Shown: positions 3,398 through 30,788, numbered from the stretch's first letter. The stretch: 64,000 nt of DNA from an uncultured Thermotogae bacterium (GCA_964547105.1 CAZJLO010000002.1:40779-104778); one strand, 5' to 3'. Made by a program: numbers and translations. Notes: generated from the sequence alone by a model not told the origin.

Positions 3398-3400
3398 CGG

Positions 3401-8812: not shown

Positions 8813-10350
8813 TCGATGGGAAATGCAAGAGCATGGGAGATGAGAGGATGACGCACGACGACCTTTGGGCGGATTCTTCTAATCGAGGCAAAGAGGCGGC
8901 ACACCGAGAGCGTTCGGGTTCAGGTTCACCCTTAGAAGACGCCGAATCGGATCTGGACAGCGTGATCGTCGGCGGTCGGGTCCTGTGCCCGTTTGGCGAC
9001 GAACTCGAAGCGGCGGCGATCGGGATTCGCGACGGCCGAATCGCCGCGATCGGGAGCGACCGAGCGTTGCAGCGGCATGCGCGAGAGCGGATCGATGCAC
9101 GGGGTCTGTGGATTCTTCCCGGAGCGATCGATGGACATACCCACATGGAAGCGCCGGCCTTCGGCGCGCAATCCGCTGACACCTTCGAGTCCGGGACGGC
9201 CGCCGCCGCTGCCGGTGGCGTGACCTCGATCATCGATTTCACGCTGGGGATGGCGGGGGTTCCGCTTTGCCGACAGATCGATCTGAGGCAGCAGCAGGCG
9301 CAACGCGCCATGGTCGATGTCGGGATGCACGCCGAAATCGTGACGTCGGAGCAGGCGGAGATCGAGGAGATTCGTGGTGCCGTCGAAGCAGGCGTGAGCA
9401 GCTTCAAGCACTACATGGTCTATGGAGAGCGGGTCGACCATGGTACGCTTCTGAAGTCGTTTCGCGCCATTGCCGCTGTCGGAGCGACAGCGATGGTCCA
9501 TGCCGAGGATCAAGAGATCGTCGAGGCGGCGACAAGAGAGCTCCGAGGCCTTCCATCCGAAGGGATGATGTTACTTCCCCGCAGTCGGCCGGAGGCAAGC
9601 GAAGCCGTTGCCGTAGCGGTTCTCGTCTGCCTGGCGGAACTAACCCGGGCGCACGTCCATGTGGCACACGTGAGCACCGCAGCGGCGTTGCAGCTGATCG
9701 CGGCGGCGAAACGGCGCGGTGTGGCCATTTCCGCGGAGACCTGTCCCCACTACCTTCTTCTGAGCGAGGATGCGTACAAGACTGGAAGCGCACGTCAGTT
9801 CTCCGTTGTGCCACCACTACGTACGGCGGCTGACAGCGCCGCGTTGTGGGCCGCCCTTGCTTGCGGCGTAGTCGACACGGTGGCGACGGATCACTGCCCG
9901 TTTCCGCGAAGCGCGAAGGATGCGCCAGCTGATCCGCTTCTGGTTCCTTGCGGGTTCCCCGGGGTCGAAACGATGGTGCCTCTCCTCTTCTCCTTTGGTG
10001 TGAGGACGTCGCGCATCTCGTTGTCGAAGTTCGTCTCGTGCATCAGCGGCCGCCCGGCTCTGCTTCTTGGCCTGTCACCGGCCAAGGGATCGCTGCAGAT
10101 CGGCGCCGATGCCGATCTGATGCTGTTTGATCCCGATGCAGCGTGGACGATCAGAGCGGATGCCCTGCACATGAACATCGACTTCTCCCCGTTCGAAGGG
10201 CAGAGGATCACTGGGAAAGTGTGTTCGACCCTTGTGCGCGGTCGCCCCGTGTTCCGTGACGGAGAGATTCTCGCTGCACCGGAGTGGGGGCAGTTCCTTC
10301 GGCGCCGTTGCCCTGCGAGTTCCTGCGGCTGGCCATCTCGGGAAACCTAA
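8809..10350 (+). CDS. cyclic amidohydrolase (D-hydantoinase/dihydropyrimidinase family)
   Basis: 513 aa; LPGAIDGHTHM metal-binding motif, G.TS..DF, HVAHVST carboxylated-lysine region; true start may be an internal Met; stop overlaps convergent ribokinase stop by 3 nt. Confidence 0.85.
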   Translation: MIDGKCKSMGDERMTHDDLWADSSNRGKEAAHRERSGSGSPLEDAESDLDSVIVGGRVLCPFGDELEAAAIGIRDGRIAAIGSDRALQRHARERIDARGLWILPGAIDGHTHMEAPAFGAQSADTFESGTAAAAAGGVTSIIDFTLGMAGVPLCRQIDLRQQQAQRAMVDVGMHAEIVTSEQAEIEEIRGAVEAGVSSFKHYMVYGERVDHGTLLKSFRAIAAVGATAMVHAEDQEIVEAATRELRGLPSEGMMLLPRSRPEASEAVAVAVLVCLAELTRAHVHVAHVSTAAALQLIAAAKRRGVAISAETCPHYLLLSEDAYKTGSARQFSVVPPLRTAADSAALWAALACGVVDTVATDHCPFPRSAKDAPADPLLVPCGFPGVETMVPLLFSFGVRTSRISLSKFVSCISGRPALLLGLSPAKGSLQIGADADLMLFDPDAAWTIRADALHMNIDFSPFEGQRITGKVCSTLVRGRPVFRDGEILAAPEWGQFLRRRCPASSCGWPSRET

Positions 10351-11255
10351 CCCTGCGAACGGATGAAAGACTCGATGTCGTCGCGCGTAGGAAGCGCTGC
10401 TTGTGCGCCGGCGATGGTTGTCGTCAGGGCACCGACAATGTTCGCCCACTGGACCGCGTCACGCAGCGACTCCGAGGTGATCTTGCATGCCAACGCTGCG
10501 TTGAATGCGTCACCGGCGGCGGTTGTATCAACCGGATCGACTTGAGGAGGGGCGACACGCTCCAGTGTGGTCGAATCGACCGGCAGCACATACGCGCCTT
10601 CGGCGCCCGACTTGCATACGATACGTCGGACGCCCAGCCCCCGCATTCGTAGCATCGCCGGTCCCAGTTCCGCCATTCCCGTGATCGCCGCCAGCTCCCC
10701 CCGATTCGGCGTGAGCAGGTCGATTCGACCGAGTGGCAGAAGGGAGAGATCTTGTGCCGGGGCAGGATCAAGAATGACGAACGGACGATCGGGATCGAGC
10801 TTTGCCAGCAGGTAGGCGATCGACTCGATCGGCGTTTCTAGTTGGAGGAGGAGAACCTCCGCAGTGGCAACAACAGGAAGAACGCGATCGATGAATGAGC
10901 GATCGACGGAAGCGTTGGCCCCCGGTACATAAGCGATGGCATTTTCTCCGGAATCCTCCACCCAGATCGTTGCCGTCCCGGTCGGCTGTTCCGGGCTTCG
11001 CTCGACGCCGCACACGTCGACTCCAGCCTGCTTCAGACTATGGAGGATGTCGTCGCCAAACGGATCGATCCCGATCCGGCCGAAGAATGCGACGGCCCCG
11101 TCAGGAGCGAGCCGTGCCGCGGCCACTGCTTGGTTGGCGCCCTTTCCGCCTGGCGAGCGGTGCAGGCTTGTTCCCCGAATCGTCTCTCCCGGTCGAGGAA
11201 TGCGCGGAAGTCTCGTTGTTAAGTCCATATTGGCACTGCCCAGCACTGCGATCAC
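10347..11255 (-). CDS. rbsK: ribokinase / PfkB-family sugar kinase
   Basis: ORF-track ORF extends to 11369 but VIAVLGSANMDL with upstream GGAGAA SD suggests GTG start near 11255; GGKGANQA, TGAGD AF NAAL anion-hole/ATP motifs. Confidence 0.8.
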   Translation of the reverse strand: MIAVLGSANMDLTTRLPRIPRPGETIRGTSLHRSPGGKGANQAVAAARLAPDGAVAFFGRIGIDPFGDDILHSLKQAGVDVCGVERSPEQPTGTATIWVEDSGENAIAYVPGANASVDRSFIDRVLPVVATAEVLLLQLETPIESIAYLLAKLDPDRPFVILDPAPAQDLSLLPLGRIDLLTPNRGELAAITGMAELGPAMLRMRGLGVRRIVCKSGAEGAYVLPVDSTTLERVAPPQVDPVDTTAAGDAFNAALACKITSESLRDAVQWANIVGALTTTIAGAQAALPTRDDIESFIRSQG

Positions 11256-11286
11256 AGATGGTTCTCCTTCTGCTCGGTCCAAATTT

Positions 11287-12609
11287 CTAGTGCCGTGTGG
11301 GTCCCGGCGAACAGGCGTTCGGCGCGATGCGTTGTCCCCATGTCGATGTCCATTGGACAAGCGTCTCAAATGGAATGGTGTCGAAACCGATCACATAGGT
11401 TGGAAGCGTGTCGCCAAGCGGTGCGATCCATTGTTTCGGAAGCGCAGACGCACCAAGCGATGCGCCGACGAGAGCGCCGACCAGACCCGCTGTGCAGTCT
11501 GTGTCAAACCCGAGATGGAGCGTGCTCAAGAGAGACCGCTCGAAGTCCGCTTCGCCAAGGATCAGCCCGGCGACGGAACAGGCAAGACTGGGAATACAGT
11601 GAATCCAATGGTAGCGTCCAAACGTTCGTTCGATCCACTTGGCGACAGAGCGTTCATCCGGTGACCTCCGGCAACAATCGATGGTTGCCTCGACAGCCGC
11701 GATGAGGGGGCTGTCGGCCGGGATGTGGCTCAGTCCGGCAATCAGGGCATCCTCCACCGGCAATCCGGCTACGATGAGGGATGTGGTCGCAGCGACGTAG
11801 ACTTCGCCGTCCACGCCTTCGCGGTAGTGAGAAATGCAGGCGTCCCGGAAGGCGGATTCCGCTGCGAGCCGCGGCGAGGCGGGGGCGACCAATCCGTGGA
11901 TCTCGCCGCGCATCTGCGCCCCGACCCATGCTCCGCAGGGATTGCGGAACCACCGGCTCTCCGGAGGCATCACACCGGCCGAGATGTTGTCCAAGGCGGC
12001 TTGCTCCGCGGTGTATGCGAACGGCAGATGCGAAAGCCACTGGAGTGCCAGATCCCGACTTGTCCAGTGAATACCGAACTCATCAAGAACGTGGAGCAGC
12101 AAAGGAGCATAGGCTGTGTCATCATTGACGAGCTTTGGTGTGCCAACATACGACTGGATCCGTCCGTGCGTGTGAAGGATCTGCTCTCGTGACCACCCTT
12201 CCACCGGTTCGCCGAGCGCCGTGCCCGCGCACTTGCCCAACCACGAGCCAAGGATACGATCTTCGTAGACCCGGTGATCGATCGGGAGCGTCATGGGGGG
12301 GAGGGTGCCCGCCGGGAGCTCCTCTTGGTAGGCCTCCCATGTGGCCGGTTCTTGCCGGCGCACGTCCGCGAGGTGCTTGACGATCAGCTCGTTGATCTTG
12401 GCCATCACGACGAGGAGATCATCGTCTCGATCGGCCAGGTAGAGCCGCTCCGCCTCGTCAAGCAGCGGATGTGCCGCAGCCATATCGCATCCAAGGTTCT
12501 CCATCGCCCGAACGGATGCACGCGTAGGATAGATCGAGATCCCTGAGTCGCCAGCGGTCTCCCAGGCGTTACGGATCGAGTTCCGGCGAGACGATGATCT
12601 GTTCATGAC
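11287..12609 (-). CDS. ADP-ribosylglycohydrolase-family protein
   Basis: Likely start MNRSSS.. (ATG 12609, 11 nt after upstream stop); ARH/DraG-family sequence throughout (ILGSWLGKCAGTALGEPVEGW.., DDTAY, GFDTDCTAGLVGALVGA). Confidence 0.8.
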   Translation of the reverse strand, partial: VMNRSSSRRNSIRNAWETAGDSGISIYPTRASVRAMENLGCDMAAAHPLLDEAERLYLADRDDDLLVVMAKINELIVKHLADVRRQEPATWEAYQEELPAGTLPPMTLPIDHRVYEDRILGSWLGKCAGTALGEPVEGWSREQILHTHGRIQSYVGTPKLVNDDTAYAPLLLHVLDEFGIHWTSRDLALQWLSHLPFAYTAEQAALDNISAGVMPPESRWFRNPCGAWVGAQMRGEIHGLVAPASPRLAAESAFRDACISHYREGVDGEVYVAATTSLIVAGLPVEDALIAGLSHIPADSPLIAAVEATIDCCRRSPDERSVAKWIERTFGRYHWIHCIPSLACSVAGLILGEADFERSLLSTLHLGFDTDCTAGLVGALVGASLGASALPKQWIAPLGDTLPTYVIGFDTIPFETLVQWTSTWGQRIAPNACSPGPTRH

Positions 12610-12620
12610 GGTCTCCTTCG

Positions 12621-13769
12621 TCACAGGGCCGCCGCCAGCAGCTCGACGACATCGAGTACATCGACCGAGTGCGCGGTACCCGCCCGCTGCTTGGCATCGA
12701 GAAAGGCCGTCTGGCATGCCGGGCAGGCGCTGACGATCGTATCCGCTTCCGTTGCGAGCGCTTCGGCGAAGCGCTCGGCTTCGGTTGTGATCGACAGCTG
12801 TTCGTGGTCGGCACGTACGAACCCGCCGCTACCGCAGCAGAACGATTGCGGGCCGCTGCGCGGCATCTCTCGTCGCTTCACACCGGGGATGGCATCGATC
12901 AGCTGCCGCGGTGGACCAAGGATGCCCAGGGATCGTCCCAGCGTGCAGGGGTCGTGATAGGTGACAAGGCGGCTTTGCCTCTTTAGTCTCAATTCGCGGA
13001 ATGCGGGAAGCTGCGCGAGATACTCAGTGATGTGAACGGCGCGTACAGGGAGGGGGTGTCCTGTCAGCTTGACGTAGTCCTCGCGGAACGTCCGGAGACA
13101 TCCCGGGCAGGCGAAGACCAGCGTCTCGGCACCGGAACGCCGGATACGTTCCAGATTCTCCTCCAGAGCTTGGCGGGCTCGATCGGGCTGTCCCATCGCC
13201 AAGAAGGGATGGCCGCAGCAAGTCTCATCTTCAAGAACGGCAAAATCGACGCCACATGCCTCGAGCAGCTGATAGGTTCCGCGGGCAATTCCCCGCCGCA
13301 GCAGAGACGGGGTGCAACCGACGAAGAAGACGACATCGGCAGTGGTGCCGACACGTTGCGTGCCTGGTAGCCAGGCAAGTCGCTTCGCTTGCGGGCGCCC
13401 GTACGGATTTCCGTTGTCGGCTACGTCTCTTACCAACGATGCCCCTCCCGGAAGAAGGAGGTCGCGCTCGGCAAGATCGGCCTTCATCGCGGCGTAGATG
13501 TCGGTCAGGGAGAGGTACTTGAAGCACTGCGACTCGCACGCGCCACACTCGGTGCAGGCGAAGACACGCTCGGCGACGTCTTGGTTGTAGGAAACAACGC
13601 CGTCGAGCAGGGCGCGGGCGATGGCGATCTTGCCTCGGGCGCCGTAGGATTCCAGCCTATTGTCCGCGTAGGGCGGGCAGATCGATTGTCCGGCGCTTTC
13701 CATGTGGTCAAAGCAGAATCCGCATCGCAAGCAGCTGTAAATCTGGTCCTTGTAGGCTTCGAGGTTCAT
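12621..13769 (-). CDS. Fe-S oxidoreductase with CCG domains (GlcF/heterodisulfide-reductase-like)
   Basis: 382 aa; two 4Fe-4S Cys clusters (CLRCGFCFDHME ; CTECGACESQC) and two CCG motifs (CGSGG, CPGC); ATGA overlap with upstream gene. Confidence 0.75.
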   Translation of the reverse strand: MNLEAYKDQIYSCLRCGFCFDHMESAGQSICPPYADNRLESYGARGKIAIARALLDGVVSYNQDVAERVFACTECGACESQCFKYLSLTDIYAAMKADLAERDLLLPGGASLVRDVADNGNPYGRPQAKRLAWLPGTQRVGTTADVVFFVGCTPSLLRRGIARGTYQLLEACGVDFAVLEDETCCGHPFLAMGQPDRARQALEENLERIRRSGAETLVFACPGCLRTFREDYVKLTGHPLPVRAVHITEYLAQLPAFRELRLKRQSRLVTYHDPCTLGRSLGILGPPRQLIDAIPGVKRREMPRSGPQSFCCGSGGFVRADHEQLSITTEAERFAEALATEADTIVSACPACQTAFLDAKQRAGTAHSVDVLDVVELLAAAL

Positions 13770-15184
13770 CGGGTCTCCTCAGGGACGAGCAGTCCCGGAT
13801 TCAGGGTTCCGTGCGGATCGAGCGTTCGCTTCAGGGTTCGGAGGAGGTCATAGCTGGTTCCCAGCTTAGGCATGATGTGCGGTGCGACGCCGCCTCCAAG
13901 TCCGCCGGGGCTCATCCGGCCCTCGGTGAACATCCGTTCGGCGATCTCGCCTCGTAGCTTCATGCCATACTCCCAGGCGTCGTCCCGGCGCTCATCGTAG
14001 AGGGTATCGATCCACAGATACGCGCCGTTGCGGGAGAAGTACGCATCGACACCCTTGACGCGGATGCCGAATTGCTCGAAGGCTTGCTCTCGTTCATTCT
14101 TCATCTCACGGAACAGGGCGATCGCCTTCTTCAGCCCCTGGGAAGAGATGAAGCCGGCCACTTCTGGACAGAAGTACGGACGATGGCTGTAATAGGGGCC
14201 GGGAGCCGTGTTGCGCAACCAGGAGTACATGTGTTCCTGCCAGTAGTGCTTGGTCCCGTCGGCCGGACGTGCCCGGCCGGCATGCGAGAAGCAGATCGCT
14301 TCCGCCTCTCGAATCCGCTCTCTTGCAGCCGATGCTCGATCTCGGACGATCAGATGAAGGAACGCGTCTCCCTGCTCTCCGGTTGGCTTGGGCCCCCCGA
14401 ACAACCCGACGATAAACGTCGCAGCACCGCTTGCCTGGATGCCGGTCGCAGCATCGATGGCATCCTGATACTCATCGAAGGCAAAGAAACGGAATTCTTC
14501 CGCCTCGGGGATCCGGTGGATGCGATACGTTACGGATGTGATGATACCGAGGATGCCGTACGACCCAATGAACAACCCGGCAAGATCTGCTCCGTTTGCG
14601 TTTCTTTCGATCGGCTCGGACGCGGGATTGGACGCGGAACCCGTATGGATGACGGCACCCGACGGCAAGACGACCTCAAGAGAGAGAACATGATCTCCGG
14701 TCATGCCGTATTCGGTTGCGCCGTGCGGAGTGGCGTTAACGGCCACGGTCCCGCCGATCGTACACGAGAACAGCCCGCCGCCTCCGGGCACGCCGAGTTC
14801 CCAACCACTTCGGTGGAGCTGCCGATCGATGGCGTACCAAATCGCGCCGCACTGTGCGGTGACGTATCCGGCCTCAAGATCGATCTTCGTGATCCCGTTC
14901 ATGCGGGTTGTGTCGAGGACGACAACTCCTTCCTTGACGCCGCTTCCGAGGAACGTGGTTGCACGGCCACGGGTGTGGATCTGGAATCCGAGGTCATTCG
15001 CCAGCCGCACCAAGGAACCGATTTCTTCGGTGCTCCCGGGTTGGACGACCAGAGCGGGGATGCCTGCTCTGTCGGGCCCGCAATCGCGCGAGTAGCAAAC
15101 GCGATCCACGAGGCTGTCCGTCACATGCTCTGCTCCGACGATCTCTGCGAGCTTTCCGCCGAGATTCTCAAGCATATCGTTCAC
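13766..15184 (-). CDS. FAD-linked oxidase (GlcD/D-lactate dehydrogenase family)
   Basis: 472 aa; FAD-binding PCMH domain sequence (ALVVQPGSTEEIGSLVRLANDLGFQIHTRGRATTFLGSG), C-terminal FAD-oxidase domain. Confidence 0.8.
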   Translation of the reverse strand: MNDMLENLGGKLAEIVGAEHVTDSLVDRVCYSRDCGPDRAGIPALVVQPGSTEEIGSLVRLANDLGFQIHTRGRATTFLGSGVKEGVVVLDTTRMNGITKIDLEAGYVTAQCGAIWYAIDRQLHRSGWELGVPGGGGLFSCTIGGTVAVNATPHGATEYGMTGDHVLSLEVVLPSGAVIHTGSASNPASEPIERNANGADLAGLFIGSYGILGIITSVTYRIHRIPEAEEFRFFAFDEYQDAIDAATGIQASGAATFIVGLFGGPKPTGEQGDAFLHLIVRDRASAARERIREAEAICFSHAGRARPADGTKHYWQEHMYSWLRNTAPGPYYSHRPYFCPEVAGFISSQGLKKAIALFREMKNEREQAFEQFGIRVKGVDAYFSRNGAYLWIDTLYDERRDDAWEYGMKLRGEIAERMFTEGRMSPGGLGGGVAPHIMPKLGTSYDLLRTLKRTLDPHGTLNPGLLVPEETR

Positions 15185-16559
15185 CTACTTTCCTGATTTC
15201 TTGAAGAGCCAACGCTTCGTCAATGCAGGTGAGTTCTCGGTCTTGCATGACGAGCCGCCCGTTGATGATGGTTGTGATGACATCGTTCGCCTTGGCGCAG
15301 TACACCAGAGATGCGAACAGGTCGTCGATCCTGTTGGAGAACTGGAGTTGGTGAGCGCCCGTTGTGTCGAGAACGACCAGATCGGCGAGCTTTCCCGGAT
15401 CGATGACGCCGGCATCGATGCCGCATGCTTGGGCGCCGTTCTCCGTGGCGAAGCGGAAGATATCTCGAGCCGTGAGGACCGTCGGGTCTTGCTTGGCGAC
15501 CTTCTGAAGCAGAAGACCGCAGCGCATTTCCTCAAACGGATCGAGTAGATCATTGGATGCTGCACCGTCCGTTCCCAACGTGATCGGAACGCCGGCACGA
15601 TGGAGATCGACGATCGGTGCAATCCCGCTTCCGAGTTTCATGTTGCTTTTGGGGTTGTATGCCACGGCGACATCGCGTGCTGCAGCCAGCCGGATGTCTC
15701 CCTCGGTGAGGTGGACGCCGTGGACGGCAAGAAGCGGGCTCTCGAGAACGCCGAGGTTGTCCAGGCGTGCCAATGGAGTCATACCGACATCCTGCAGCGA
15801 TTGCTCGACCTCCCAAGCAGTCTCCGACACATGGGTTGTGATTCCGAGGTTGTGTACGTGGGCCTGCCTGCCAATCCACGTGAGCAGGTCGTCCGTGCAG
15901 GTAAACGGCGTCGAAGGCGCGAGCATCACGGTCGACAAGGGAGCAACCCTTGGCATTCGGTGCCATCGCTCGATCAGGGCCAACGTGTCGTCCTTTGTCT
16001 GCTCGCGCGAGACGCGAAGTTCTTCGGGAACCCACTTGTCCACCAAGCTCATCGCGGCAACGCCGCGGATCCCGATCTGGTGCCAGGCGTCGATCACGCC
16101 GTCGATATTCATATCCATGTCTACGAAGGAAGTGATGCCGCTGCGGATCATTTCGATGCAGCCAAGAAGCGACCAGAGCGAGGCGATCTCCGTTGCACCA
16201 TCGTTCCAGGCAGCGCGAAGGACGCGCTTGACAAATGGGAATGTCACATCATCGCACCATGCGACCAGCGACAGGTCGTCGCGACGTCCTTTGAGCATTG
16301 ACTGATAGAGGTGGGTGTGGCTGTTGACCAGCCCGGGGATGACCAGCCGGTTGCGACCGTCGATCACGACAAGGTCGTCATCGGGACCGTTGTCGGATCC
16401 GAACGGCCCTTCCCCGACCGAGGAAACCCGCGTGCCTTCAATCAACACATCGACGTCGTGCTCGATTCGGTCGGCATCGCGGATCAGCGTCGAGATGTTC
16501 CTGAGTAGGATTCTCGATTCCGGCTGTCTGCCGGCGGGCAATACGATCCGATCGGTCAT
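15168..16559 (-). CDS. COG0402-type amidohydrolase (cytosine/guanine/MTA-SAH deaminase-like)
   Basis: Start MTDRIVLP at 16559 (ATGA overlap with upstream stop); motifs PGLVNSHTHLYQS, HVSET, AYNPKSNMKLGSG, GTDGAASN. Confidence 0.85.
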   Translation of the reverse strand: MTDRIVLPAGRQPESRILLRNISTLIRDADRIEHDVDVLIEGTRVSSVGEGPFGSDNGPDDDLVVIDGRNRLVIPGLVNSHTHLYQSMLKGRRDDLSLVAWCDDVTFPFVKRVLRAAWNDGATEIASLWSLLGCIEMIRSGITSFVDMDMNIDGVIDAWHQIGIRGVAAMSLVDKWVPEELRVSREQTKDDTLALIERWHRMPRVAPLSTVMLAPSTPFTCTDDLLTWIGRQAHVHNLGITTHVSETAWEVEQSLQDVGMTPLARLDNLGVLESPLLAVHGVHLTEGDIRLAAARDVAVAYNPKSNMKLGSGIAPIVDLHRAGVPITLGTDGAASNDLLDPFEEMRCGLLLQKVAKQDPTVLTARDIFRFATENGAQACGIDAGVIDPGKLADLVVLDTTGAHQLQFSNRIDDLFASLVYCAKANDVITTIINGRLVMQDRELTCIDEALALQEIRKVGERYA

Positions 16560-17713
16560 CTCGTTTCTCCTTGTCCATGACGGAAACCATGTGATTCTCT
16601 GTCGTCGTCTCGAATCCAGGACAGAGCGTGTGTCGCGCAGGCGGAGACACAAAGGCCGCACTGCCGGCACAGTGAACCGACCTCGGAGTCAAACGACGAC
16701 CTGGCTCCGTAAGGGCAGATTTCCACGCAGCGGTTGCAGTGGGTACATACCTCGGGATTCCAGATGAAGGTGAACAGGCGATCGCCCCCGGCATCGGCGG
16801 CAGGCCGTGTGGCGTCGGGAACGATGGCCGCGCCGATGCAGTCGGCGTAGGCATCGAAGCCAAGCTCCTCAAGGCGCAGCGCGAGGCCTTCCGGAAGCGA
16901 TCGGAGCATCGCCAAGCCTCGGAGAAGAGGCGCGGTGCAGACACCGATTGCCGTGGCCCCCGCCATCAGCATCTCCACCGCATCTTCGGCACGCATGACT
17001 CCGCCCGTTCCGATGATCGGGACGGAGCGGGGGAGAACCGCGGACAGGCGGGCAACCAAATGAAGTGCAATCGGGAATAGCGAGCCGCCGGAGAGCCATG
17101 CTGAGACGGAGCCAAGTTGGGGCCGTCGTCTCTCCACATTGATGCGCAGCGCTGGTCCGATGGAATCGGAAGCGGTGATCGCAGCTGCGCCGCGCGCTGC
17201 GCAACGCTGCGCTGCGCCGATCGGATCGCGCCAATTGACGCTGATCTTGGCGATCACCGGGATCTTAACCAGAGTGACGGCCTGCATGACCATTGCTTCG
17301 ATCGCCGCCTCATCGTACGACACGATCTCCAGGGCGTCCGCTCCCGCTTTCTCCAGGCAGGGCGCCAACGCAGCGACATCCGGCGGTGCGAGCCCGACAC
17401 TGGCGATCACGATCGCCCCGGATTCCTTTGCAAGCGGAAGCTCGTGTTCGATCCACGCGGACGCAGACAGCGTCGACCAGCGTTCGGCGTTGAGAAGCGT
17501 GCCGGTTCGCTCCCAGAAGATAGTTGGCGTCGGATCGACGGCTGCGGCCCGGGAGATCGTCTTGGTGACCACGGCCGCTGCTCCGGCTTTGTGCGCGCGG
17601 GCGATCGATTCCCCGTTGTGGGAAAGGGGTCCCGAGGCGAGCAGGAACGGATGGGGCAATTGCAGGGAGCCGATTCGAGTCGTCAGTTTCACGAGAGATC
17701 TCCTTTCTTCCAC
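16556..17713 (-). CDS. dihydroorotate/dihydropyrimidine dehydrogenase-like flavoprotein with C-terminal 2x[4Fe-4S] ferredoxin domain (PreA-like)
   Basis: 385 aa; DHOD class-1 TIM-barrel sequence (LASGPL, IIGTGGV) followed by CTHCNRCVEICP and CRQCGLCVSAC ferredoxin motifs. Confidence 0.8.
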   Translation of the reverse strand: MEERRSLVKLTTRIGSLQLPHPFLLASGPLSHNGESIARAHKAGAAAVVTKTISRAAAVDPTPTIFWERTGTLLNAERWSTLSASAWIEHELPLAKESGAIVIASVGLAPPDVAALAPCLEKAGADALEIVSYDEAAIEAMVMQAVTLVKIPVIAKISVNWRDPIGAAQRCAARGAAAITASDSIGPALRINVERRRPQLGSVSAWLSGGSLFPIALHLVARLSAVLPRSVPIIGTGGVMRAEDAVEMLMAGATAIGVCTAPLLRGLAMLRSLPEGLALRLEELGFDAYADCIGAAIVPDATRPAADAGGDRLFTFIWNPEVCTHCNRCVEICPYGARSSFDSEVGSLCRQCGLCVSACATHALSWIRDDDRESHGFRHGQGETR

Positions 17714-19056
17714 AGCCGAAGAGCCTCGCGTGCGGCGCGGGAGCGGATGTATTCACTGTCCAACGTCCGGACCGTGCCACGCTCCATCAGGATGTTCCCG
17801 CCGACCATTGACAGCACGACATGCGTGCTGTTCCGATAGAGGAGCGTCTGGTCGAGCAGGTTGTCTTCGGTGAGCGGCGTATCCTCGCCTGGAACGACCC
17901 CGATCAGATCGGCCGGTGCGCCGACGGACAGCATGCCGAGTTCGGGCATACCGATTGCGGCGGCGCTCCACGAAGTCGCCATTCTCCATGCAGTCTCCGC
18001 AGGAATCGCGGTGGCATCGCGTTGTGCCGCCTTGTGAAGGAGGAACGCACCGCGCATCACTTCGAATGGATCATTGATGTAGCCGTCCGTGCCCAGCCCC
18101 GGGGTCAGCCCGCGTTCGATCATTCGCGGAACCGGGGCGATGCCTCCTCCGACTTCGCAGTTGCTGAGCGGCATATGTGCGGCCCGGACTCCCTGCTTGG
18201 CAAGAACATCCAACTCATCGCCGTCCACGGCGACAAGCTGCGATGCGAGAACGGATGGGTCCCAGAAAGCGAGCCGGTCGTACCAATGCACGGGGCGAAG
18301 CCCATTTCGTGCAACGCACCACGCCGGTTCATACTCGCTCTCCGAAAGATGCAGCTGGAGGTCGGCGTGAACACTTGCCGCCGATGCCTTTGCCCGGCGC
18401 ACGAATGCTTCGGAACACGTGAAGCTGGTATGGATGCATTGCATCCCGCGGATTCGGGAGTCGCCCCTCGTATCTCGGATGAACCGCTCGTTCTCGGTGA
18501 GGGGCGCATCGCCGCAGGTGGCTCCTGCCCGCTCGGACGCCTCGATCGATAGAATCGCCCGAAGGCCGGCTTGCTCCACGACGGATGCCTCGCTTGCGAG
18601 AATGCCCGCCGGTGCGAATGGCGCCTCTAGAATGTCGCAGAAGGTCGTGAATCCCGAGCGGATCATGGACAGGCAGGCCAGTTCGCAGGCGGCGACGATC
18701 ATCTGTTCATCAAGGAGGTTCTCGACTTTGGGCCACCAGAACGCCTCCAGGAACGAGTCGAATCCCGGTTCCGGCGGAGCGGCGGGGATTCCGTGGGCCA
18801 ACAGCCCGTATGCGTGCATGTGGGCGTTTACGAATCCAGGGCACAGGACAAGATCCCGACAATCGATGTGGTCGGCGTTGGGGAATGTCTCGGCGAGCGT
18901 CTCGTTGGGAGCGATCTCGGTGATTCGCCCGTCGCAAACGACGACACCCCACCCGCGATGAATCGAGAAAGCGGATGAGGAAGTCGGCGTACCGCCTGAT
19001 CCCGATCCCGGTCCCGATGCGATGACCCAGCCGCCGAAAAGAACAAGAGGATTCAC
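17689..19056 (-). CDS. COG0402-type amidohydrolase (SsnA/chlorohydrolase/deaminase-like), second copy
   Basis: 455 aa; CPGFVNAHMHAYG, HLSESEYE, HMPLSNCEVGGG, GLGTDG; ATGA overlap with upstream AOR stop. Confidence 0.85.
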   Translation of the reverse strand: MNPLVLFGGWVIASGPGSGSGGTPTSSSAFSIHRGWGVVVCDGRITEIAPNETLAETFPNADHIDCRDLVLCPGFVNAHMHAYGLLAHGIPAAPPEPGFDSFLEAFWWPKVENLLDEQMIVAACELACLSMIRSGFTTFCDILEAPFAPAGILASEASVVEQAGLRAILSIEASERAGATCGDAPLTENERFIRDTRGDSRIRGMQCIHTSFTCSEAFVRRAKASAASVHADLQLHLSESEYEPAWCVARNGLRPVHWYDRLAFWDPSVLASQLVAVDGDELDVLAKQGVRAAHMPLSNCEVGGGIAPVPRMIERGLTPGLGTDGYINDPFEVMRGAFLLHKAAQRDATAIPAETAWRMATSWSAAAIGMPELGMLSVGAPADLIGVVPGEDTPLTEDNLLDQTLLYRNSTHVVLSMVGGNILMERGTVRTLDSEYIRSRAAREALRLWKKGDLS

Positions 19057-21008
19057 GAGACCTCGCCTCCTGCAAGTGGCTTGCCTGCCGGGCGCCGGCG
19101 GTATCGCTTCAGCTCCGCCTCGACGTCAGCAAGTTTGAGTCTCCGCAGTGTCTCGGGTGTCGGCCAGCCATCCACCTGATCCCACCCGCGCAACGCGTAG
19201 TACTCGGCCAACATCTGCTCGGCATGTGCGATCTCGCCGCGGGCGCCTCGGGAAGGAGATGGTTCCTGCGTGAATCGCCGAGGCAGACGGTCATCGGCGC
19301 GGGAAATCCCGTGGCGGGCGTTGTAGGCACGCATTTGGTTGGTGATGCGCTCGCCTGCCTCGCGGAGTTCAGCTTCGTTAATGTCCCAGCCGGTTGACAA
19401 ACGGAGCCCTTCCGTAAGATCGGGCCAGTAGATCTCGGCCATCACAAATGTTCCGCCGGATTTGCAGACACCGAGGGAATCTACCACGGCCCCGAAGTCC
19501 TCGCCATCTTTCACGAGGAATGGCTTGTGTTTTGTTGCATGGGGATCCGCCATCTCAGGAAGATACGTTGGGCCGTAGCGGCGTGCGACCTCGTCAGGAA
19601 CGCCGGTTTCATCGATGGTTGGGAACGCCTTCAGATGGTCGGCGCCTCGGCTGGCGGTGATGTGGGCCAATCCCATCGACTGCTGTGCCCGACCGTCCTG
19701 TGCGGGGATCTCCATCCCCTTGACGTGCATGGCATATTCGGCGCAATCACCGCCGATGGAAGCGGCCGCTCGTGAAACCCCTTCAGCAAGGAGATCGCCG
19801 AACCCTTCGCGAGCCGCGATCATCCGAATGAGCTTGAGCATGCTCTCCGAGTTGCCCCAGCTAAGATCGAGCCCTTGGGAAACCGAATGCGGCAGCATGT
19901 CGCGCTGCTGTAGTTCCATTGCGAACGAAATGGCGCGCCCGGCGGAAATCGTGTCCATCCCCAGCCGATCGCAGAGATCATTGGCTTCGAGGATCGCTTC
20001 GATGTCGGCGCAACCGACGTTGGAACCGAAGGCGTTGAGCGTCTCGTATTCCAGGCTCGAGACCTCAAGGCCGCTCCTCGGTCCTCGTTCAATGCGGTAG
20101 ACCTTGTCGCAGCGGATCGGGCATGCGTGACAGCCCTCATCTCGCACCCAGTAGCGATTGCGGAGGACCTCGGCGCTGATGGCCGCCGCTTGGTCGAACT
20201 CCCCGTTCTGGAAATTCCGTGTCGGGAATCGCCCGATCTCGTTGGCAAGAAGAACCAAGCTTGCCGTTCCGTATCGGGAGACGGTGGGGAACAGCGGGTT
20301 GGCCCGGATCCGCGCATGCATCGCACGCGCGACTGTGGCGAAGCGCTTGGAGTTGGCCAGCGGGACAGGTCGAGTTCCGCGGATGCAGATTGCCTTGAGC
20401 TTCTTTGAGCCGAGAACGGCACCAAGTCCACACCGCCCGAAACTGCGATTCGGCGATGCCTGGATTGCCGCGAAGCGAATGAGATTCTCTCCAGCGGGTC
20501 CGATTGTGGCGACCTTCATCGCCGGGTCCTCGAACCGGCAACGGATCATTCGCTCTGTTTCCAGCGTGTCATGTCCCCAGAGGTCGTCGGCCGGCTCAAG
20601 CCTCGGGCCGCGACGGTCGATGCAGAGCAAGGTTGGAGATGGGGCAATGCCTCGGATGGCAATCATGTCGTAGCCGGCGCGTTTCAGCTCAGGTCCGAAG
20701 AAGCCGCCAGCATTGGAGTCGCCGTAGATCCCGGTCAGCGGCGACTTGGCGATCGCCTCGGTGCGTCCCGAACAGGGCCAACCCGTTCCCACGAGCGGAC
20801 CGGTGGCAATCACCAGCCAAGCGTCGGCGGACAAGGGGTCGATCTCGGCGCCGACGTGATCCCACAACCAGCGGACGCCGAACCCGTTGCCGCCCAACCA
20901 GGACCTAGCGAACGCTCCGTCCAAGACGCGTGTGCGAACGGTCCCGGCGGAAAGATCGACTTCAAGCCATGCCCCCATGTAGCCACCAGCGATTGCGTTC
21001 GATGTCAT
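19053..21008 (-). CDS. tungsten-type aldehyde:ferredoxin oxidoreductase (AOR) family protein 1
   Basis: Likely start MTSNAIAGGYMGAWLEVDLSAGTV (ATG 21008, ATGA overlap with upstream AOR stop); AOR N-domain (DPLS..LVIATGPLVGT..SGR..AKSPLTG..DSNAGGFFGPELK), DEGCHACPIRC 4Fe-4S ligands, EYE..NAFGSN, C-terminal LPRRF.. Confidence 0.9.
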   Translation of the reverse strand: MTSNAIAGGYMGAWLEVDLSAGTVRTRVLDGAFARSWLGGNGFGVRWLWDHVGAEIDPLSADAWLVIATGPLVGTGWPCSGRTEAIAKSPLTGIYGDSNAGGFFGPELKRAGYDMIAIRGIAPSPTLLCIDRRGPRLEPADDLWGHDTLETERMIRCRFEDPAMKVATIGPAGENLIRFAAIQASPNRSFGRCGLGAVLGSKKLKAICIRGTRPVPLANSKRFATVARAMHARIRANPLFPTVSRYGTASLVLLANEIGRFPTRNFQNGEFDQAAAISAEVLRNRYWVRDEGCHACPIRCDKVYRIERGPRSGLEVSSLEYETLNAFGSNVGCADIEAILEANDLCDRLGMDTISAGRAISFAMELQQRDMLPHSVSQGLDLSWGNSESMLKLIRMIAAREGFGDLLAEGVSRAAASIGGDCAEYAMHVKGMEIPAQDGRAQQSMGLAHITASRGADHLKAFPTIDETGVPDEVARRYGPTYLPEMADPHATKHKPFLVKDGEDFGAVVDSLGVCKSGGTFVMAEIYWPDLTEGLRLSTGWDINEAELREAGERITNQMRAYNARHGISRADDRLPRRFTQEPSPSRGARGEIAHAEQMLAEYYALRGWDQVDGWPTPETLRRLKLADVEAELKRYRRRPAGKPLAGGEVS

Positions 21009-22903
21009 CCGTCTTCCCCTTGTCCCGGCAGGTCCAGTCGCGCCAACGTTGTCTCGGTCGGCAGGCCGTCGCGCGTCCAACCGCGAAGGCCGTAGTAGGT
21101 TTGGAGCATGGCCGGCAGATCGTGGATTCTTGGTTGTGGCGCTGAAACGGACCGTTCCCGGAGAACTTGCTCGGATTGATGGAGTGGAAGCGAATCCTCA
21201 ACGAATCGCCTTGGGAGGGTGTCGTCCGCTGATCGGAGCCCATGCTGGACGTTGATCCAGCGCTCGAGATTGACAATCCGCTCCCCGACTGTGAGAAGAT
21301 CACTCGCCGACATCGGCAATCCCAGCGATGACAGCGCCAGCGCGATGTCCGTCGGGAGAATGGCGTACGTTTCGGTTGTTGTGAACTTGCAGACGCCGAG
21401 AGCGTCGGAAACAGCACAGTACTCCTCGGAGAACTTCAGAAGGCTCGGCTTGGAGGTTTCGTCCCACGGGTCGAGTACGGATGGAAGCAGGTCGGGAAGG
21501 ATTTTCTTGACGACCGTCTCATTGTTGGTGAGCTCGATGGTCGGGAGGCCGTACAGGTGATCAGCGCCTCGATTGGACGTCGCATGCCCGAGGCCGAACG
21601 CCTTGGCCACACGTGGCTCCTGGCAAGGGATCTCAAGGCCCTTCACATGCATTGCGAGATCGAGGGCATCGCCGCCGATCCGTTCCGCCGCACATCGCGT
21701 TCCTTGGCCGAGCAATGCTCCAAGACCGCGCTGCGATGCTATCTGCTCGATCAATTCAAGGATTGCGGCCGGATTGCCCCAGGTGAGGTCAACCGTTGGA
21801 TCATCGAGCAGCCCGCGTTCGTGGCACTCCATCGCGAATGAGATGGCGCCGCCGACGGAGATGGTGTCGAGCCCCAGCTGGTTGCAGCGAGCATTGGCAT
21901 GGACGATTGCCTCCGCGTCGGAGCAGAAACAGTTGGGGCCGAGCGCGTCGATCGACTCATATTCGGGGCCGGCGCTTCGGCACTGATGAGGTCCTGTCCC
22001 GACTTCTGAGATGCGGCCGCACCGAATCGAACAACCCTGGCAGCCTTTGGTTTGGGATCGGAAAGGCTCAAATGCGCCGGCATCAACCCGATCGACAAAC
22101 GGGACTTGCCCCAACCGGTGGTTCTTCGTCGGAAGATCGCCGACGACATTCTTGATCGCCACCAGGTAGGGCGTTCCCCATTGGGCAAGCGACGAAACAC
22201 CGGGGTTGTCGGCGACAGCACGGTGGGCTGCGCTCGCTAACGATACGAACCGGCGTGGCCAGCGCAGCGTATCCCCCGATACCGTTACAATCGCCTTGAG
22301 CCGTTTGTGACCGAGAACCGCGCCTCCGCCGCAACGCGCCGCGGCGCGTCCACCGTCGATCAGAATTCCGGCCATCGGGACACCACGTTCGCCGGCGGGA
22401 CCGATGCAGGCGACCGAAGCGGAGGCAGGTCTCACTTGATCAAGGAGGCGTGCCTCAGCGACATCCGAGTCCATCCCCCACACAAACGACGCGTCGCAAA
22501 GGACGGCGGTCCCATCTTCTACGCGCAGGTAGACCGGATCGTGGGCCCGCCCGGCGATGGCCAGTGCGGCGATGCCTTGGGACGCGAGCCGATGGGCGAG
22601 GGCTCCTCCGGCATTGGCGTAGCCGTAGATCTCCGTTAGCGGAGATCTGAAACCAAAGTGAACCCGCGAAGACGACGGCCACGGGCTGGCGGACAGAAGC
22701 CCCGGTGCGACAATAAACGGGGCTTCGGGGGAACACGGGGCAATCTCCCAGATGTGGGCGTCGGCAAGAAGCCGCGCCGCCAACCCTCGACCGCCAAGAT
22801 ACGAAGAGCGGTAGGACGATGGCAGGACGGAACGGGTGATGGAGCGCGTTTCGAGGTCGACACAGAGCATGAAGGAAGGAAGGGGAGCGCTAGGGTTAGG
22901 CAT
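21005..22903 (-). CDS. tungsten-type aldehyde:ferredoxin oxidoreductase (AOR) family protein 2
   Basis: 632 aa; same AOR architecture (CQGCSIRC, EYESIDALGPN, LPRRFVED); alternative start MLCVDLETRS at 22870; the two AORs are clearly divergent paralogs, not a recent duplicate. Confidence 0.85.
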   Translation of the reverse strand: MPNPSAPLPSFMLCVDLETRSITRSVLPSSYRSSYLGGRGLAARLLADAHIWEIAPCSPEAPFIVAPGLLSASPWPSSSRVHFGFRSPLTEIYGYANAGGALAHRLASQGIAALAIAGRAHDPVYLRVEDGTAVLCDASFVWGMDSDVAEARLLDQVRPASASVACIGPAGERGVPMAGILIDGGRAAARCGGGAVLGHKRLKAIVTVSGDTLRWPRRFVSLASAAHRAVADNPGVSSLAQWGTPYLVAIKNVVGDLPTKNHRLGQVPFVDRVDAGAFEPFRSQTKGCQGCSIRCGRISEVGTGPHQCRSAGPEYESIDALGPNCFCSDAEAIVHANARCNQLGLDTISVGGAISFAMECHERGLLDDPTVDLTWGNPAAILELIEQIASQRGLGALLGQGTRCAAERIGGDALDLAMHVKGLEIPCQEPRVAKAFGLGHATSNRGADHLYGLPTIELTNNETVVKKILPDLLPSVLDPWDETSKPSLLKFSEEYCAVSDALGVCKFTTTETYAILPTDIALALSSLGLPMSASDLLTVGERIVNLERWINVQHGLRSADDTLPRRFVEDSLPLHQSEQVLRERSVSAPQPRIHDLPAMLQTYYGLRGWTRDGLPTETTLARLDLPGQGEDG

Positions 22904-23918
22904 GGTCTTGTCCTCTTCGGGATCGAGCCGAATCGCTTGTCCAAGCTGTTATGAGGATCCGCGGATCAATGGCTCCGGCGTGGGCAACGGAGCCGGTTGT
23001 CTCATCATTCACAGTGATCTGGGCAATCTTGTTGAGGTGGGTCAGATCGGGGATCGCCTCGAAGACGCCACCGGCGGCTTCGAGCAACTCGGCGAAGAGG
23101 TGCCCGTAGTGTCGGCAAGAACGAAAAACCAACTGATCCGCGATCTTCGAGACGTGCAACCCGGGAGGCAGCCGAAGCGAGATCGTTGCGCATCCGGCGT
23201 AGTGGATGAAGTCGTCGGCGAGGAGTCGGGGCGCCACGGTCTGTCCCAGGCGGGCAATCGAGGGAGCGATCGGAACGGATCCGGTGATGTGCGACACGCA
23301 GGCGGCATCCATCCCGAGGCTCTCCTGTAGCGTAAACAGGACACTTTCGTTGCCGCGTCCTGCGATCTGCGCCGAGCCAGCGGGACTGCCAGGCGGGACG
23401 GCGATGAGCACGAGATCAGCGGCGGCGACCCTGGCCCGGGCGGCGATCGCCTTCACGACAGCGGGGGATGGTCTCGTTTCCGTCTCGATCACCGCTGTTC
23501 GCCAGCTGCGGGCGAGATCGCCACGATTCGCGGGTGAGGTAGCGAACGCGGCGCGAATCGGGCCGGACACGCGAACCGCATCGTCGACTTCGGAGAGGGG
23601 AAGCGAAAGCTGCAGCCCCAGTGCGGAGCGGACTGGAAGCCAGGAATCGACGATCATTCTCGGGAGAACCCAGCCGTCGAGGTCCGTCGTATCGAGCCGG
23701 GCCATCGCCATCCCGCCGTGGCAGATTTCGACGAGTCTTCGGCCGGCTTCCCAGGATCCCGGCGCATCAATGCCACAGTCGATGATCATCGGAGCGGAAG
23801 GAGCAGTTGAGATGTCGACCCCAAGCAATGGGGCATCGGCGCGCAGCGCATCCAGCAGAAGCTCAAGCCGTGGGGCAGCCTCAACAAGCATCTGCCTGCT
23901 CCAGGTGACGTCTCTCAA
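22896..23918 (-). CDS. mch: methenyltetrahydromethanopterin cyclohydrolase (Mch) family protein
   Basis: 340 aa; IIDCGIDAPGSWEAGRRLVEICHGGMA, GSVPIAPS, ITVNDETTGSVAHAGAIDPRIL closely parallel Mch signature blocks as I recall them. Confidence 0.75.
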   Translation of the reverse strand: MRDVTWSRQMLVEAAPRLELLLDALRADAPLLGVDISTAPSAPMIIDCGIDAPGSWEAGRRLVEICHGGMAMARLDTTDLDGWVLPRMIVDSWLPVRSALGLQLSLPLSEVDDAVRVSGPIRAAFATSPANRGDLARSWRTAVIETETRPSPAVVKAIAARARVAAADLVLIAVPPGSPAGSAQIAGRGNESVLFTLQESLGMDAACVSHITGSVPIAPSIARLGQTVAPRLLADDFIHYAGCATISLRLPPGLHVSKIADQLVFRSCRHYGHLFAELLEAAGGVFEAIPDLTHLNKIAQITVNDETTGSVAHAGAIDPRILITAWTSDSARSRRGQDHA

Positions 23919-28746: not shown

Positions 28747-28853
28747 CGGTTCACCCACTCCGGTTCCACTTGTGCTGCAACAGGCTGTCTGAGATGAGAT
28801 GCAGCAGGAATGGGGGGCGGGCGAGCCGCCCCCCTTCCCATGGTTCGGTACCC

Positions 28854-30766: not shown

Positions 30767-30788
30767 CGACAACCTCCCGGTTTCCTGT

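Follow-up and report, generated by a model that had tools for sequence, protein, structure and literature searches.

A UacX-type reductase and an SsnA-like amidohydrolase as a conserved pair, probably for reductive purine ring opening, in a Bipolaricaulota-like operon with two AOR-family genes

The 64,000-nucleotide stretch analyzed here (hereafter the window; GCA_964547105.1 CAZJLO010000002.1:40779-104778), deposited as DNA of an uncultured Thermotogae bacterium, carries three translationally coupled minus-strand genes that encode an amidohydrolase (AmhA), a DHOD-family iron-sulfur flavoprotein (the reductase), and a second amidohydrolase (AmhB). Homology, domain architecture, active-site differences, co-conservation, and gene neighborhoods together indicated that AmhA and the reductase probably constitute the ferredoxin-type reductive dearomatization and ring cleavage step of anaerobic purine degradation. 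As set out in the published work on the reductive uric acid pathway (PMC12507026; bioRxiv 10.1101/2025.04.24.650524), XdhD/DOPDH reduces urate to 2,8-dioxopurine; YgfK then reduces 2,8-dioxopurine (yanthine) and SsnA opens the ring to yield ureidomethyl-hydantoin, an activity seen only when the two enzymes are coupled; HyuA opens ureidomethyl-hydantoin; and YgeY, YgeW (or UacY), and YgeX carry out the last steps to pyruvate.

The core spans 15168-19056, where the initial annotation had placed an amidohydrolase/DHOD-family Fe-S flavoprotein/amidohydrolase sandwich, and the three open reading frames (ORFs) were recovered at the limits it gave. AmhA (17689-19056; 455 amino acids, aa) matches Pfam Amidohydro_1 at 117.8 bits, the reductase (16556-17692; 378 aa, GTG start) matches DHO_dh at 87.9 bits with additional C-terminal Fer4 matches and carries the CxxCxxCxxxC motif twice at its C-terminus, and AmhB (15168-16559; 463 aa, ATG start) matches Amidohydro_1 at 224.1 bits. 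Both junctions are 4-nt overlaps with an AAGGAG-type ribosome-binding site on their 5' side; the ATGA coupling described earlier is present between the reductase and AmhB (16559-16556), whereas the overlap between AmhA and the reductase (17692-17689) reads GTGA. The top NCBIfam matches of both hydrolases were COG0402-type families (MtaD/DadD, SsnA, 8-oxoguanine and guanine deaminases), which bears out their earlier placement in the deaminase/chlorohydrolase clade rather than the hydantoinase clade, and the reductase scored highest with class-1 DHOD and PreA models. None of the three proteins reached a curated NCBIfam cut-off.

The family identity of the reductase was traced through the clostridial uric acid clusters. 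With the C. ultunense homologue as seed, a search returned the Clostridioides protein P0146 and its sister cluster P0149 (222 C. difficile sequences), both filed under the names C. difficile dihydroorotate dehydrogenase/4Fe-4S binding protein. The window reductase is 36% identical to P0146 over its full length (350 aligned residues; E 1e-66), the equivalence of P0146 to UacX resting on its gene-cluster context. In C. difficile, according to the published account, YgfK is exchanged for UacX, a PF01180 protein with an FMN site and no FAD domain that is presumed to be ferredoxin-dependent (PMC12507026), and since the Clostridioides locus (Xdh ... Fer2 - FAD5 - XdhMo - amidohydrolase of 437 aa - DHO_dh/Fer4 of 361 aa ... 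M20 - hydantoinase - YqeC) matches this description, the reductase was assigned to the UacX family. The 775 homologues scored share the same length and architecture, namely an FMN domain and an Fe-S domain with eight invariant cysteines and no FAD or NAD(P)H domain (in the window protein, DHO_dh at 10-278 and Fer4 at 317-363 in the numbering of the 385-aa long ORF, from which seven is subtracted for the 378-aa protein). Consistent with this architecture, no Pyr_redox_2-type gene that could encode a PreT-type FAD/NAD partner was found in the operon, nor any YgfK-like match in the window.

The AlphaFold model of the reductase (pLDDT 87, pTM 0.85) was closest in structure to pig dihydropyrimidine dehydrogenase (DPD; TMq 0.78-0.81), followed by DHODB (0.69), so that the earlier label "PreA-like" holds for architecture and fold. 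It does not hold for the enzyme itself: it scored 115 bits with the PreA model NF006183 (cut-off 335) and shares 26% identity with E. coli PreA, and throughout the UacX family the catalytic-Cys loop present in E. coli PreA, pig DPD, and L. lactis DHODB is deleted. The gap comprises 15 residues relative to E. coli PreA, with loss of NFSCPQ, and matching gaps appear against 1gt8 and 1ep1; what remains of the loop is an invariant VSY(D). We take C671 of pig DPD to be its catalytic cysteine, as established in the literature and reflected in the C671S/A entries of the PDB. The substrate-binding Asn-Thr motif of PreA (AINT) is replaced by A(S/I/C)DS in the family (D176/S177 in the window reductase). 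Other family-wide invariants, N68, E70, S125, Y126, and K149 together with D176, S177, and the eight cysteines, are all present in the window protein, and K44 is also kept. From the structural match to DPD, the loop deletion, and the Asp-Ser replacement, we conclude that the reductase is a DPD-like fold with a rebuilt substrate and proton-donor site. Assignment as class 1B PyrD was rejected as well (PRK07259, 139.8 bits against 269; NISCPN loop absent), and PydAc was ruled out by the cut-offs and the lost catalytic loop.

AmhA, the partner of the reductase, is 39% identical (E 1e-118) to the 437-aa amidohydrolase encoded directly upstream of Clostridioides UacX, and 24-26% identical to E. coli SsnA. 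It failed both SsnA models (TIGR03314, 201.1 bits against 455.5; NF005540, 216.3 against 444), on which the E. coli SsnA control scored 737.9 and 709.6 bits, respectively, so that the possibility of a true SsnA was ruled out. The Clostridioides protein itself is only 26% identical to E. coli SsnA (271/248 bits against 444/455), and the amidohydrolases encoded next to UacX in Clostridioides, C. ultunense, and Sporomusa (237-277 bits), as well as the counterparts from a spirochaete and another Bipolaricaulota member, all missed the SsnA cut-offs. Because these models failed, identity was low, and no closer SsnA homologue was found in the Clostridioides locus, the UacX partner represents a distinct SsnA-like family, and AmhA, judged by its sequence, is a member of this family found upstream of UacX: SsnA-like, but not SsnA. 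The family invariants H79 and H81 (HxH), H236 and E239 (HLSES), and D324 are present in AmhA, and the family has the conserved motif HMPLSNCEVGGG. A comparison of active sites among COG0402 enzymes showed that AmhB retains the complete deaminase set, whereas AmhA has exchanged the beta-6 His for Gln; at this position (273 in AmhA), at least 95% of AmhA family members carry Gln, and E. coli SsnA, AmhB, and GuaD carry His.

Gene neighborhoods were compared by tblastn, with the window proteins and the E. coli uricolytic proteins as queries, in 84 loci (numbered with the prefix L), of which 80 came from a scan of one genome per species and four were fetched from contigs. An AmhA-type gene adjoins the reductase gene on the same strand in 63 of the 84 loci; when only the 64 loci with flanks of 1.5 kb or more on each side are counted, the figure is 51. 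This arrangement is therefore not a matter of chance. By the labels of the deposited metagenome-assembled genomes (MAGs), the loci come from at least six phyla, the names being Bipolaricaulota, Thermotogota, Spirochaetota, Halanaerobiales, other Bacillota, Chloroflexota, and Atribacteria. Outside the clade of the window, genes around the pair encode homologues of XdhA/B/C or XdhD, YgeW, YgeY, HyuA, YqeA, and YgeX, as well as carbamate kinase, as in Sporomusa (L047), C. ultunense (L071), Paradesulfitobacterium (L036), L015, L024, L011, and many MAGs. Between window-type and these Xdh-type loci, consistent differences were confined to seven positions of the reductase and four of AmhA, nearly all of them conservative, which suggests that the same ring system is handled in both. 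The initial annotation had described a reduce-then-hydrolyse ring-opening module with an unknown substrate. The cross-phylum co-conservation, together with the published logic of YgfK/UacX and SsnA (PMC12507026), supports such a module for AmhA and the reductase, though not for AmhB, and the family neighborhoods suggest that the substrate is a 2,8-dioxopurine-type 2-oxopurine.

In the scheme we propose, in which substrate, electron donor, step order, and all catalytic activities are what we infer from these comparisons, low-potential electrons, probably from ferredoxin, would enter through the two C-terminal [4Fe-4S] clusters and pass to FMN. The flavin would then reduce a 2-oxopurine of the 2,8-dioxopurine (yanthine) type, and the product of this uphill reaction would be pulled onward by AmhA, a presumed mononuclear-metal amidohydrolase, which would hydrolyse the ring amidine and open the pyrimidine ring to a ureidomethyl-hydantoin-type compound. 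This compound would be opened in turn by a D-hydantoinase/dihydropyrimidinase-like amidohydrolase encoded at 8809-10350 on the plus strand (TIGR02033, 375.8 bits against 393), the separate, opposite-strand hydantoinase that had already been recognized. AmhB, in contrast, most likely acts as a deaminase before ring reduction and not on the reduced ring.

Directly upstream of AmhA lie two genes for AOR-family enzymes, AOR1 (19053..21008, minus strand; AFOR_N/AFOR_C, 433/234 bits; 430 bits to P. furiosus AOR, 1aor) and the more divergent AOR2 (21005..22903, minus strand; 372/194 bits; 316-324 bits to 1aor/9mqx), joined to each other by an ATGA overlap. When aligned with 1aor, both keep the equivalents of E313 and H448, the catalytic Glu and His of the P. 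furiosus enzyme, and of its [4Fe-4S] cysteines (the CxxCxxxC motif and C494). The idea that the two are BamB-like or aberrant was not supported, given the canonical Glu/His and cluster ligands and the best match to P. furiosus AOR. An AOR gene directly flanks the AmhA-reductase pair in 32 of 61 pairs, and in 22 it holds the position directly upstream of AmhA, as AOR1 does. Among the 36 loci flanked by 7 kb or more on each side, the 11 with two AOR copies had no Xdh molybdenum subunit, the 18 with no AOR copy all had at least one, the seven with a single copy had none to two, and no locus lacked both; the sampled loci are phylogenetically related and the counts are thus not independent events, while the pattern covers several phyla. 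The presence of AOR and Xdh genes beside the module is therefore close to mutually exclusive, and in the window the two AORs occupy the slot held by xanthine dehydrogenase (Xdh)-family enzymes in clostridial clusters.

The AOR2-AOR1-AmhA-reductase block is found in two contexts, one of them the window-type operon. In the other (L010, L011, L012, L028), a hydantoinase gene lies upstream, and genes for GntR, carbamate kinase, three OTCase-like proteins, M20, and XdhA lie downstream. A minimal cluster in an Anaerolineae genome (L092, 4066-11071) reads AOR - 132-aa polyferredoxin - AOR - ThiS/MoaD-like - AmhA-type - UacX-type reductase, with no other catabolic genes near, and hints at an electron chain from AOR through ferredoxin to the reductase. 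Three readings of the AORs present themselves: they may substitute for Mo/Se hydroxylases on the purine ring, they may be dedicated ferredoxin reducers that feed the reductase, or they may oxidize a pathway aldehyde. Oxidation of a sugar-derived aldehyde, an idea prompted by DeoC in L044, L090, and L091, was weakened by the occurrence of the block in the absence of sugar genes in L010-L012, L028, and L092. We tentatively suggest, as a possibility that is on balance doubtful, that in Bipolaricaulota-like bacteria and other strict anaerobes probably tungsten-dependent AORs replace the Se/Mo enzymes of the Xdh family, either as ring hydroxylase/dehydroxylase or as ferredoxin reducer, and that in the window-type operon an unoxidized C8 leaves as a formyl or formimino unit via the hydantoinase and two further proteins of the operon, Ftr-like and Mch-like. 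Our literature search for AOR or tungsten in purine degradation found nothing relevant.

The core genes sit in the middle of a run of approximately 18 co-directional genes (about 22 kb, from 32519 down to 10347), in which overlaps of 4 or 8 nt are frequent and NTGA overlaps occur at 7 of the 17 junctions. In the order of transcription, the first half of this run (all on the minus strand) begins with a metallophosphoesterase (30789..32519; Metallophos and MetallophosN) whose hydrophobic N-terminal segment may be an export signal and whose position at the operon head, kept in L090 and L091, suggests that the imported substrate is made by extracellular dephosphorylation. It is followed by a family-1 extracellular solute-binding protein (29495..30826; SBP_bac_1/SBP_bac_8); a small Oxidored_molyb-like ORF (28854..29396) with a weak match to PF00174 (24.7 bits), which has counterparts between the solute-binding protein and the alcohol dehydrogenase in L090 (4202-4705, 40 bits) and L091 (4237-4740), the family measuring 167-180 aa; a Zn-dependent alcohol/polyol dehydrogenase (27694..28887; ADH_N/ADH_zinc_N) that resembles threonine and inosose dehydrogenases below their cut-offs; two permeases (BPD_transp_1; 25987..27704) of the ATP-binding cassette (ABC) type with 4-nt overlaps; a DAGK/NAD-kinase-like protein (24920..25990) with weak DAGK_cat/NAD_kinase matches and conserved synteny; and the Ftr-like and Mch-like genes described below. 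The second half comprises AOR2, AOR1, AmhA, the reductase, and AmhB, followed by a GlcD-like FAD-linked oxidase (13766..15184; FAD_binding_4; 124.8 bits against a glcD cut-off of 568) that shows 62-88% identity among syntenic loci; its GlcF-/TfrB-like Fe-S partner (12621..13769; CCG and Fer4_8), joined by an ATGA overlap; an ADP-ribosylglycohydrolase-family protein (11287..12624; ADP_ribosyl_GH, 163 bits, no NCBIfam family matched; start codon uncertain, 12606 or 12624); and a ribokinase-like PfkB kinase (10347..11369; TIGR02152, 264.8 bits against 299.65). Given the candidate exported phosphoesterase, the ABC importer, the ADP-ribosylglycohydrolase-family ribosidase, and the ribokinase, this operon has the appearance of a system that takes up and breaks down a ribosylated, purine-like compound.

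The plus-strand hydantoinase gene converges on the 3' end of the operon, and this convergence is kept in the type-IV loci L004, L006, L009, L013, and L043. Elsewhere the hydantoinase gene immediately follows that of the reductase on the same strand (L002, L003, L007, and L093) or immediately precedes the Ftr-like gene (L090 and L091). An AMP-dependent ligase gene (7151-8812, plus strand), which ends in a 4-nt overlap with the start of the hydantoinase gene, was not found beside the hydantoinase in syntenic window-type loci, and weak homologues lie near the module in the spirochaete loci L021 and L029. Upstream of the operon, a second CUT1-type ABC set (32653-37598, minus strand; permease assigned by Pfam), with a LacI-family regulator gene directly upstream of it, shows 48-63% identity by tblastn to the solute-binding protein and permeases of the operon. 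In loci from Spirochaetia, Thermotogae, and another MAG, genes for corrinoid proteins, URO-D-type/MtmB-like methyltransferases, and RACo-type activases stand by the module (L083, 5261-9386 and 19198-20361; L044, 13104-15210; L093, 14112-17989), and these may serve the demethylation of methylated purines.

Several points weigh against the assignment of the window pair to purine ring reduction and cleavage. In the available text of the published account, UacX was purified and its assays appear in Methods, its result is not reported, and its role is drawn from a comparison of gene clusters; the supplement holds neither a UacX sequence nor UacX activity data (PMC12507026). The activities of the clade to which the window enzymes belong are likewise predicted from homology. 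To this are added the 24-26% identity of AmhA to SsnA, its failure on the SsnA models, and the Gln273 that stands in place of the beta-6 His of SsnA and the deaminases. No homologue of E. coli Xdh, YgeW, YgeY, YgeX, YqeA, or YgfK was found by tblastn in the 64 kb, and carbamate kinase was likewise not found there (UacY was not used as a query), so that the window offers no explanation for the formation of 2,8-dioxopurine or the removal of the ureido groups. The Ftr-like, Mch-like, DAGK-like, and GlcD/GlcF-like proteins and the two AORs, for their part, have no role in the published pathway. The substrate could thus be a related but different heterocycle.

This last idea can be stated more fully. 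The same module would act on a purine that is not oxidized at C8, or on a pterin or lumazine from a ribosylated cofactor such as methanopterin, and the hydantoinase, AmhB, and the Ftr-like and Mch-like proteins would handle a one-carbon (C1) formimino or formyl unit in place of the second ureido group. Besides the missing Xdh, YgeW, YgeY, and YgeX, it draws on the two C1-type proteins themselves. The Mch-like cyclohydrolase (22896..23918, minus strand) matches Pfam MCH at 148.6 bits and TIGR03120 at 123.4 bits against 228.8, and Arg and Glu residues align in it with Arg183 and Glu186 of M. kandleri Mch (1qlm), which we take to be the catalytic pair. The Ftr-like formyltransferase-fold protein (23970..24884, minus strand; FTR and FTR_C; TIGR03119, 158.9 bits against 292.6; NF002554, 160.3 against 297) belongs to a tight subfamily (45-100% identity, approximately 80 clusters) that is separate from canonical Ftr (at most 33%); the window protein is 100% identical to P0254 from the ENA MUDA16-1 metagenomes and 87% identical to a Candidatus Bipolaricaulota protein. 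This dedicated subfamily, with the Mch-like protein, travels with the module: 13 Ftr-like matches agree with UacX homologues in the length of their longest contig and so probably share contigs with them, and more distant members stand in operons that read LacI - DeoC - Metallophos - SBP - Mo-domain - ADH - permeases - DAGK-like - hydantoinase - Ftr-like - (Mch-like) - AOR - AOR - AmhA (SBP, solute-binding protein; ADH, alcohol dehydrogenase), with the hydantoinase gene immediately before the Ftr-like gene in L090 and L091, as noted above. The Ftr-like gene also recurs in a rearranged Thermotogae cluster (L044; AmhB-like - ADH - Ftr-like - AKR - hydantoinase - AmhA - reductase - AOR), where an FGGY kinase gene and the DeoC aldolase gene precede the module. 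In classical clostridial purine fermentation the imidazole carbon leaves as a formimino or formyl unit; if Xdh does not oxidize C8, the same carbon might, speculatively, leave in this form by way of the hydantoinase, Ftr-like, and Mch-like proteins. The phosphoesterase, ADP-ribosylglycohydrolase, and ribokinase would fit a phospho-ribosylated substrate, and a more remote idea is that a ribosylated pterin cofactor, for example methanopterin, is broken down. However, Xdh-type and window-type loci hardly differ in the active-site and invariant residues of AmhA and the reductase, which argues for the same ring system; the AOR2-AOR1-AmhA-reductase block also stands beside carbamate kinase, three OTCase-like, M20, and XdhA genes, as described above; and the roles of the Ftr-like and Mch-like proteins are conjectural. 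We therefore regard a different heterocycle as unlikely. A literature search for Ftr or Mch in Bipolaricaulota found nothing relevant.

The position of AmhB next to the reductase invites another explanation, namely that AmhA and AmhB act in turn on the reduced heterocycle, with two ring or amidine hydrolyses per reduction, as the initial annotation had implied. AmhB is indeed coupled to the reductase by ATGA and to the next gene, its position is constant in the window-type clade, and SsnA shows that COG0402-like enzymes can open rings (PMC12507026). Its adjacency is nevertheless limited in extent: of 61 pairs, only 11, every one of them from the window-type clade, have an AmhB-type gene as right-hand neighbor (on the downstream side of the reductase when AmhA is first in order); the complete sandwich of AmhA, reductase, and AmhB occurs at approximately 12-15 loci of one clade; the slot is filled by a hydantoinase in the sister loci L001, L002, L003, L007, and L093; and MtaD/DadD-like genes in Xdh-type clusters (the Clostridioides copy scoring 374-377 bits) are not adjacent to the reductase. 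Only AmhA is thus an obligate partner. AmhB also scored highest with nucleoside deaminase families (PRK06038, 347 bits against 609; PRK08393, 340; the 5'-deoxyadenosine deaminase model PRK07228, 315 against 522; PRK15493, 211 against 779), its top PDB match was the MTA/SAH deaminase 4f0r (199.6 bits), and it keeps the full deaminase signature (HxH, HxxE, beta-6 His, and Asp), the beta-6 His being the residue lost in AmhA. Two successive hydrolyses of the reduced ring are therefore improbable. A HutF-like formimino deiminase, with HutF models at no more than 166 bits against 347 for the MtaD-like model, was set aside as only remotely possible.

AmhB is most likely a feeder deaminase that would convert an aminopurine or its nucleoside to the oxo form before ring reduction. 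In the simplest reading, this feeder step would operate with the ADP-ribosylglycohydrolase and the ribokinase, in the order of deamination, base release, and ribose phosphorylation. AmhB shares its best hidden Markov model and PDB matches, metal ligands, HxxE, and beta-6 His with MtaD/DadD and the 8-oxoguanine/guanine deaminases, but at 315-347 bits against cut-offs of 522-617 it is the equivalog of no named deaminase, and in contrast to housekeeping MtaD/DadD enzymes it is embedded in an operon.

A ferredoxin-dependent reductive pyrimidine pathway, with the reductase as a PydAc/PreA-type enzyme and the plus-strand hydantoinase as dihydropyrimidinase, was also weighed. The architecture and fold of the reductase are those of the C-terminal half of DPD, PydAc reduces uracil with ferredoxin (PMC7332683), and the hydantoinase falls only just below the dihydropyrimidinase cut-off (375.8 against 393). 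The low PreA score, the deletion of the 15-residue loop that holds the catalytic Cys and a substrate-binding Asn, and the change from Asn-Thr to Asp-Ser all speak against it; PydAc has two ferredoxin domains (PMC7332683) and the window reductase one; and the neighbors of the family are purine genes, not beta-ureidopropionase. A pyrimidine substrate is accordingly very improbable. The further notion that the three genes share no function and are housekeeping MTA/SAH or guanine deaminases around a biosynthetic PyrD, for which the "dihydroorotate dehydrogenase" names of homologues in the source annotations and the MTA/SAH deaminases among the best PDB matches of the amidohydrolases could be cited, and whose housekeeping-deaminase part the initial annotation had itself named as the refuting case, is effectively refuted by the cross-phylum adjacency in 63 of 84 loci with 4-nt overlaps, the scores of all three proteins below every curated cut-off, the missing PyrD catalytic loop, and the setting of the genes within a catabolic operon with transporters.

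Other parts of the window hold further genes. They include a sugar ABC ATPase, a Peripla_BP_4 binding protein, and a xylulokinase-like FGGY kinase (1721-6787, minus strand); an ArsP-type permease, a DsbD_2-type membrane protein, and an ArsF-family nitroreductase-subunit-like protein (39437-42393, minus strand) that probably form an organoarsenical resistance set; a PorV/PorQ-like protein and one of 604 aa that shows a weak C-terminal match of the type IX secretion system type (45320-48183, minus strand), unexpected for a Bipolaricaulota-like genome; and a protein of 753 aa in which TPR repeats follow an adenylate/guanylate cyclase domain at the N-terminus (57354-59615, minus strand). Several consecutive ORFs of 250-450 aa at 48650-55198 and 60288-61640 gave no Pfam or NCBIfam match, and the strongest positive GC skew of the window lies at 52-56 kb.

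Compared with known systems, the window stands closest to the Clostridioides UacX cluster. The two share both protein families at full length and with the same architecture, the gene order of amidohydrolase then reductase, the VSYD remnant, the DS at 176-177, and the eight cysteines of the reductase, as well as a hydantoinase and an MtaD/DadD-like deaminase. They differ in phylum, the window being Bipolaricaulota-like; in the Xdh-family Mo enzyme, M20 (YgeY), YgeW, YgeX, and carbamate kinase, which the window lacks (UacY was not searched); and in the two AORs, the Ftr/Mch-like and GlcD/GlcF-like pairs, the ADP-ribosylglycohydrolase, the ribokinase, and the ABC importer, which it adds. Of the uricolytic set XdhD, HyuA, YgeY, YgeX, and UacY/YgeW, the window holds the hydantoinase only. 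With E. coli YgfK (DOPOR) and SsnA it shares the logic, and probably the chemistry, of a flavin reduction of 2,8-dioxopurine pulled by ring hydrolysis and followed by HyuA, although AmhA, at 24% identity, fails both SsnA models. With the DPD family (pig DPD, PreA/PreT, and PydAc) the reductase shares the TIM-barrel FMN domain and the C-terminal pair of [4Fe-4S] clusters, and the ferredoxin-type electron input of PydAc (PMC7332683) is proposed for it as well; unlike DPD and PreA, it lacks the NxSCP loop, the Asn-Thr pair, and a PreT partner and has a single ferredoxin domain, and its partner hydrolase is of the deaminase clade rather than a dihydropyrimidinase. The operon context is thus an undescribed variant, with AORs in place of Xdh, Ftr/Mch-like proteins, a GlcD/GlcF-like pair, an ADP-ribosylglycohydrolase and ribokinase, and an importer.

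It was not until 2025 that the reductive 2,8-dioxopurine route was elucidated, and the work was limited to the NAD(P)H-dependent enzymes of E. coli and C. sporogenes; no published activity was found for the ferredoxin-type form with UacX and an SsnA-like hydrolase. Our findings demonstrated that a UacX-type reductase and a distinct SsnA-like hydrolase form a conserved unit well beyond the gut Firmicutes, present in sediment and subsurface phyla such as Bipolaricaulota, Thermotogota, Atribacteria, and Chloroflexota, and that roughly half of the sampled loci show the pair in physical linkage with AORs instead of xanthine dehydrogenases. The labels "dihydroorotate dehydrogenase," "4Fe-4S binding protein," and "amidohydrolase" under which such proteins are deposited could accordingly be re-annotated. 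The Ftr-like and Mch-like genes offer a testable context for these folds outside C1 metabolism. If the AORs carry out purine chemistry or supply the electrons, the recycling of nucleic acids in anoxic sediments would be tied to the availability of tungsten, and their participation would add a reaction class to the AOR family. Should the exchange of Xdh-family enzymes for AORs and the departure of C8 as a formyl or formimino unit prove true, AOR-family enzymes would have a new role, as would two methanogen-type C1 folds in non-methanogenic bacteria.

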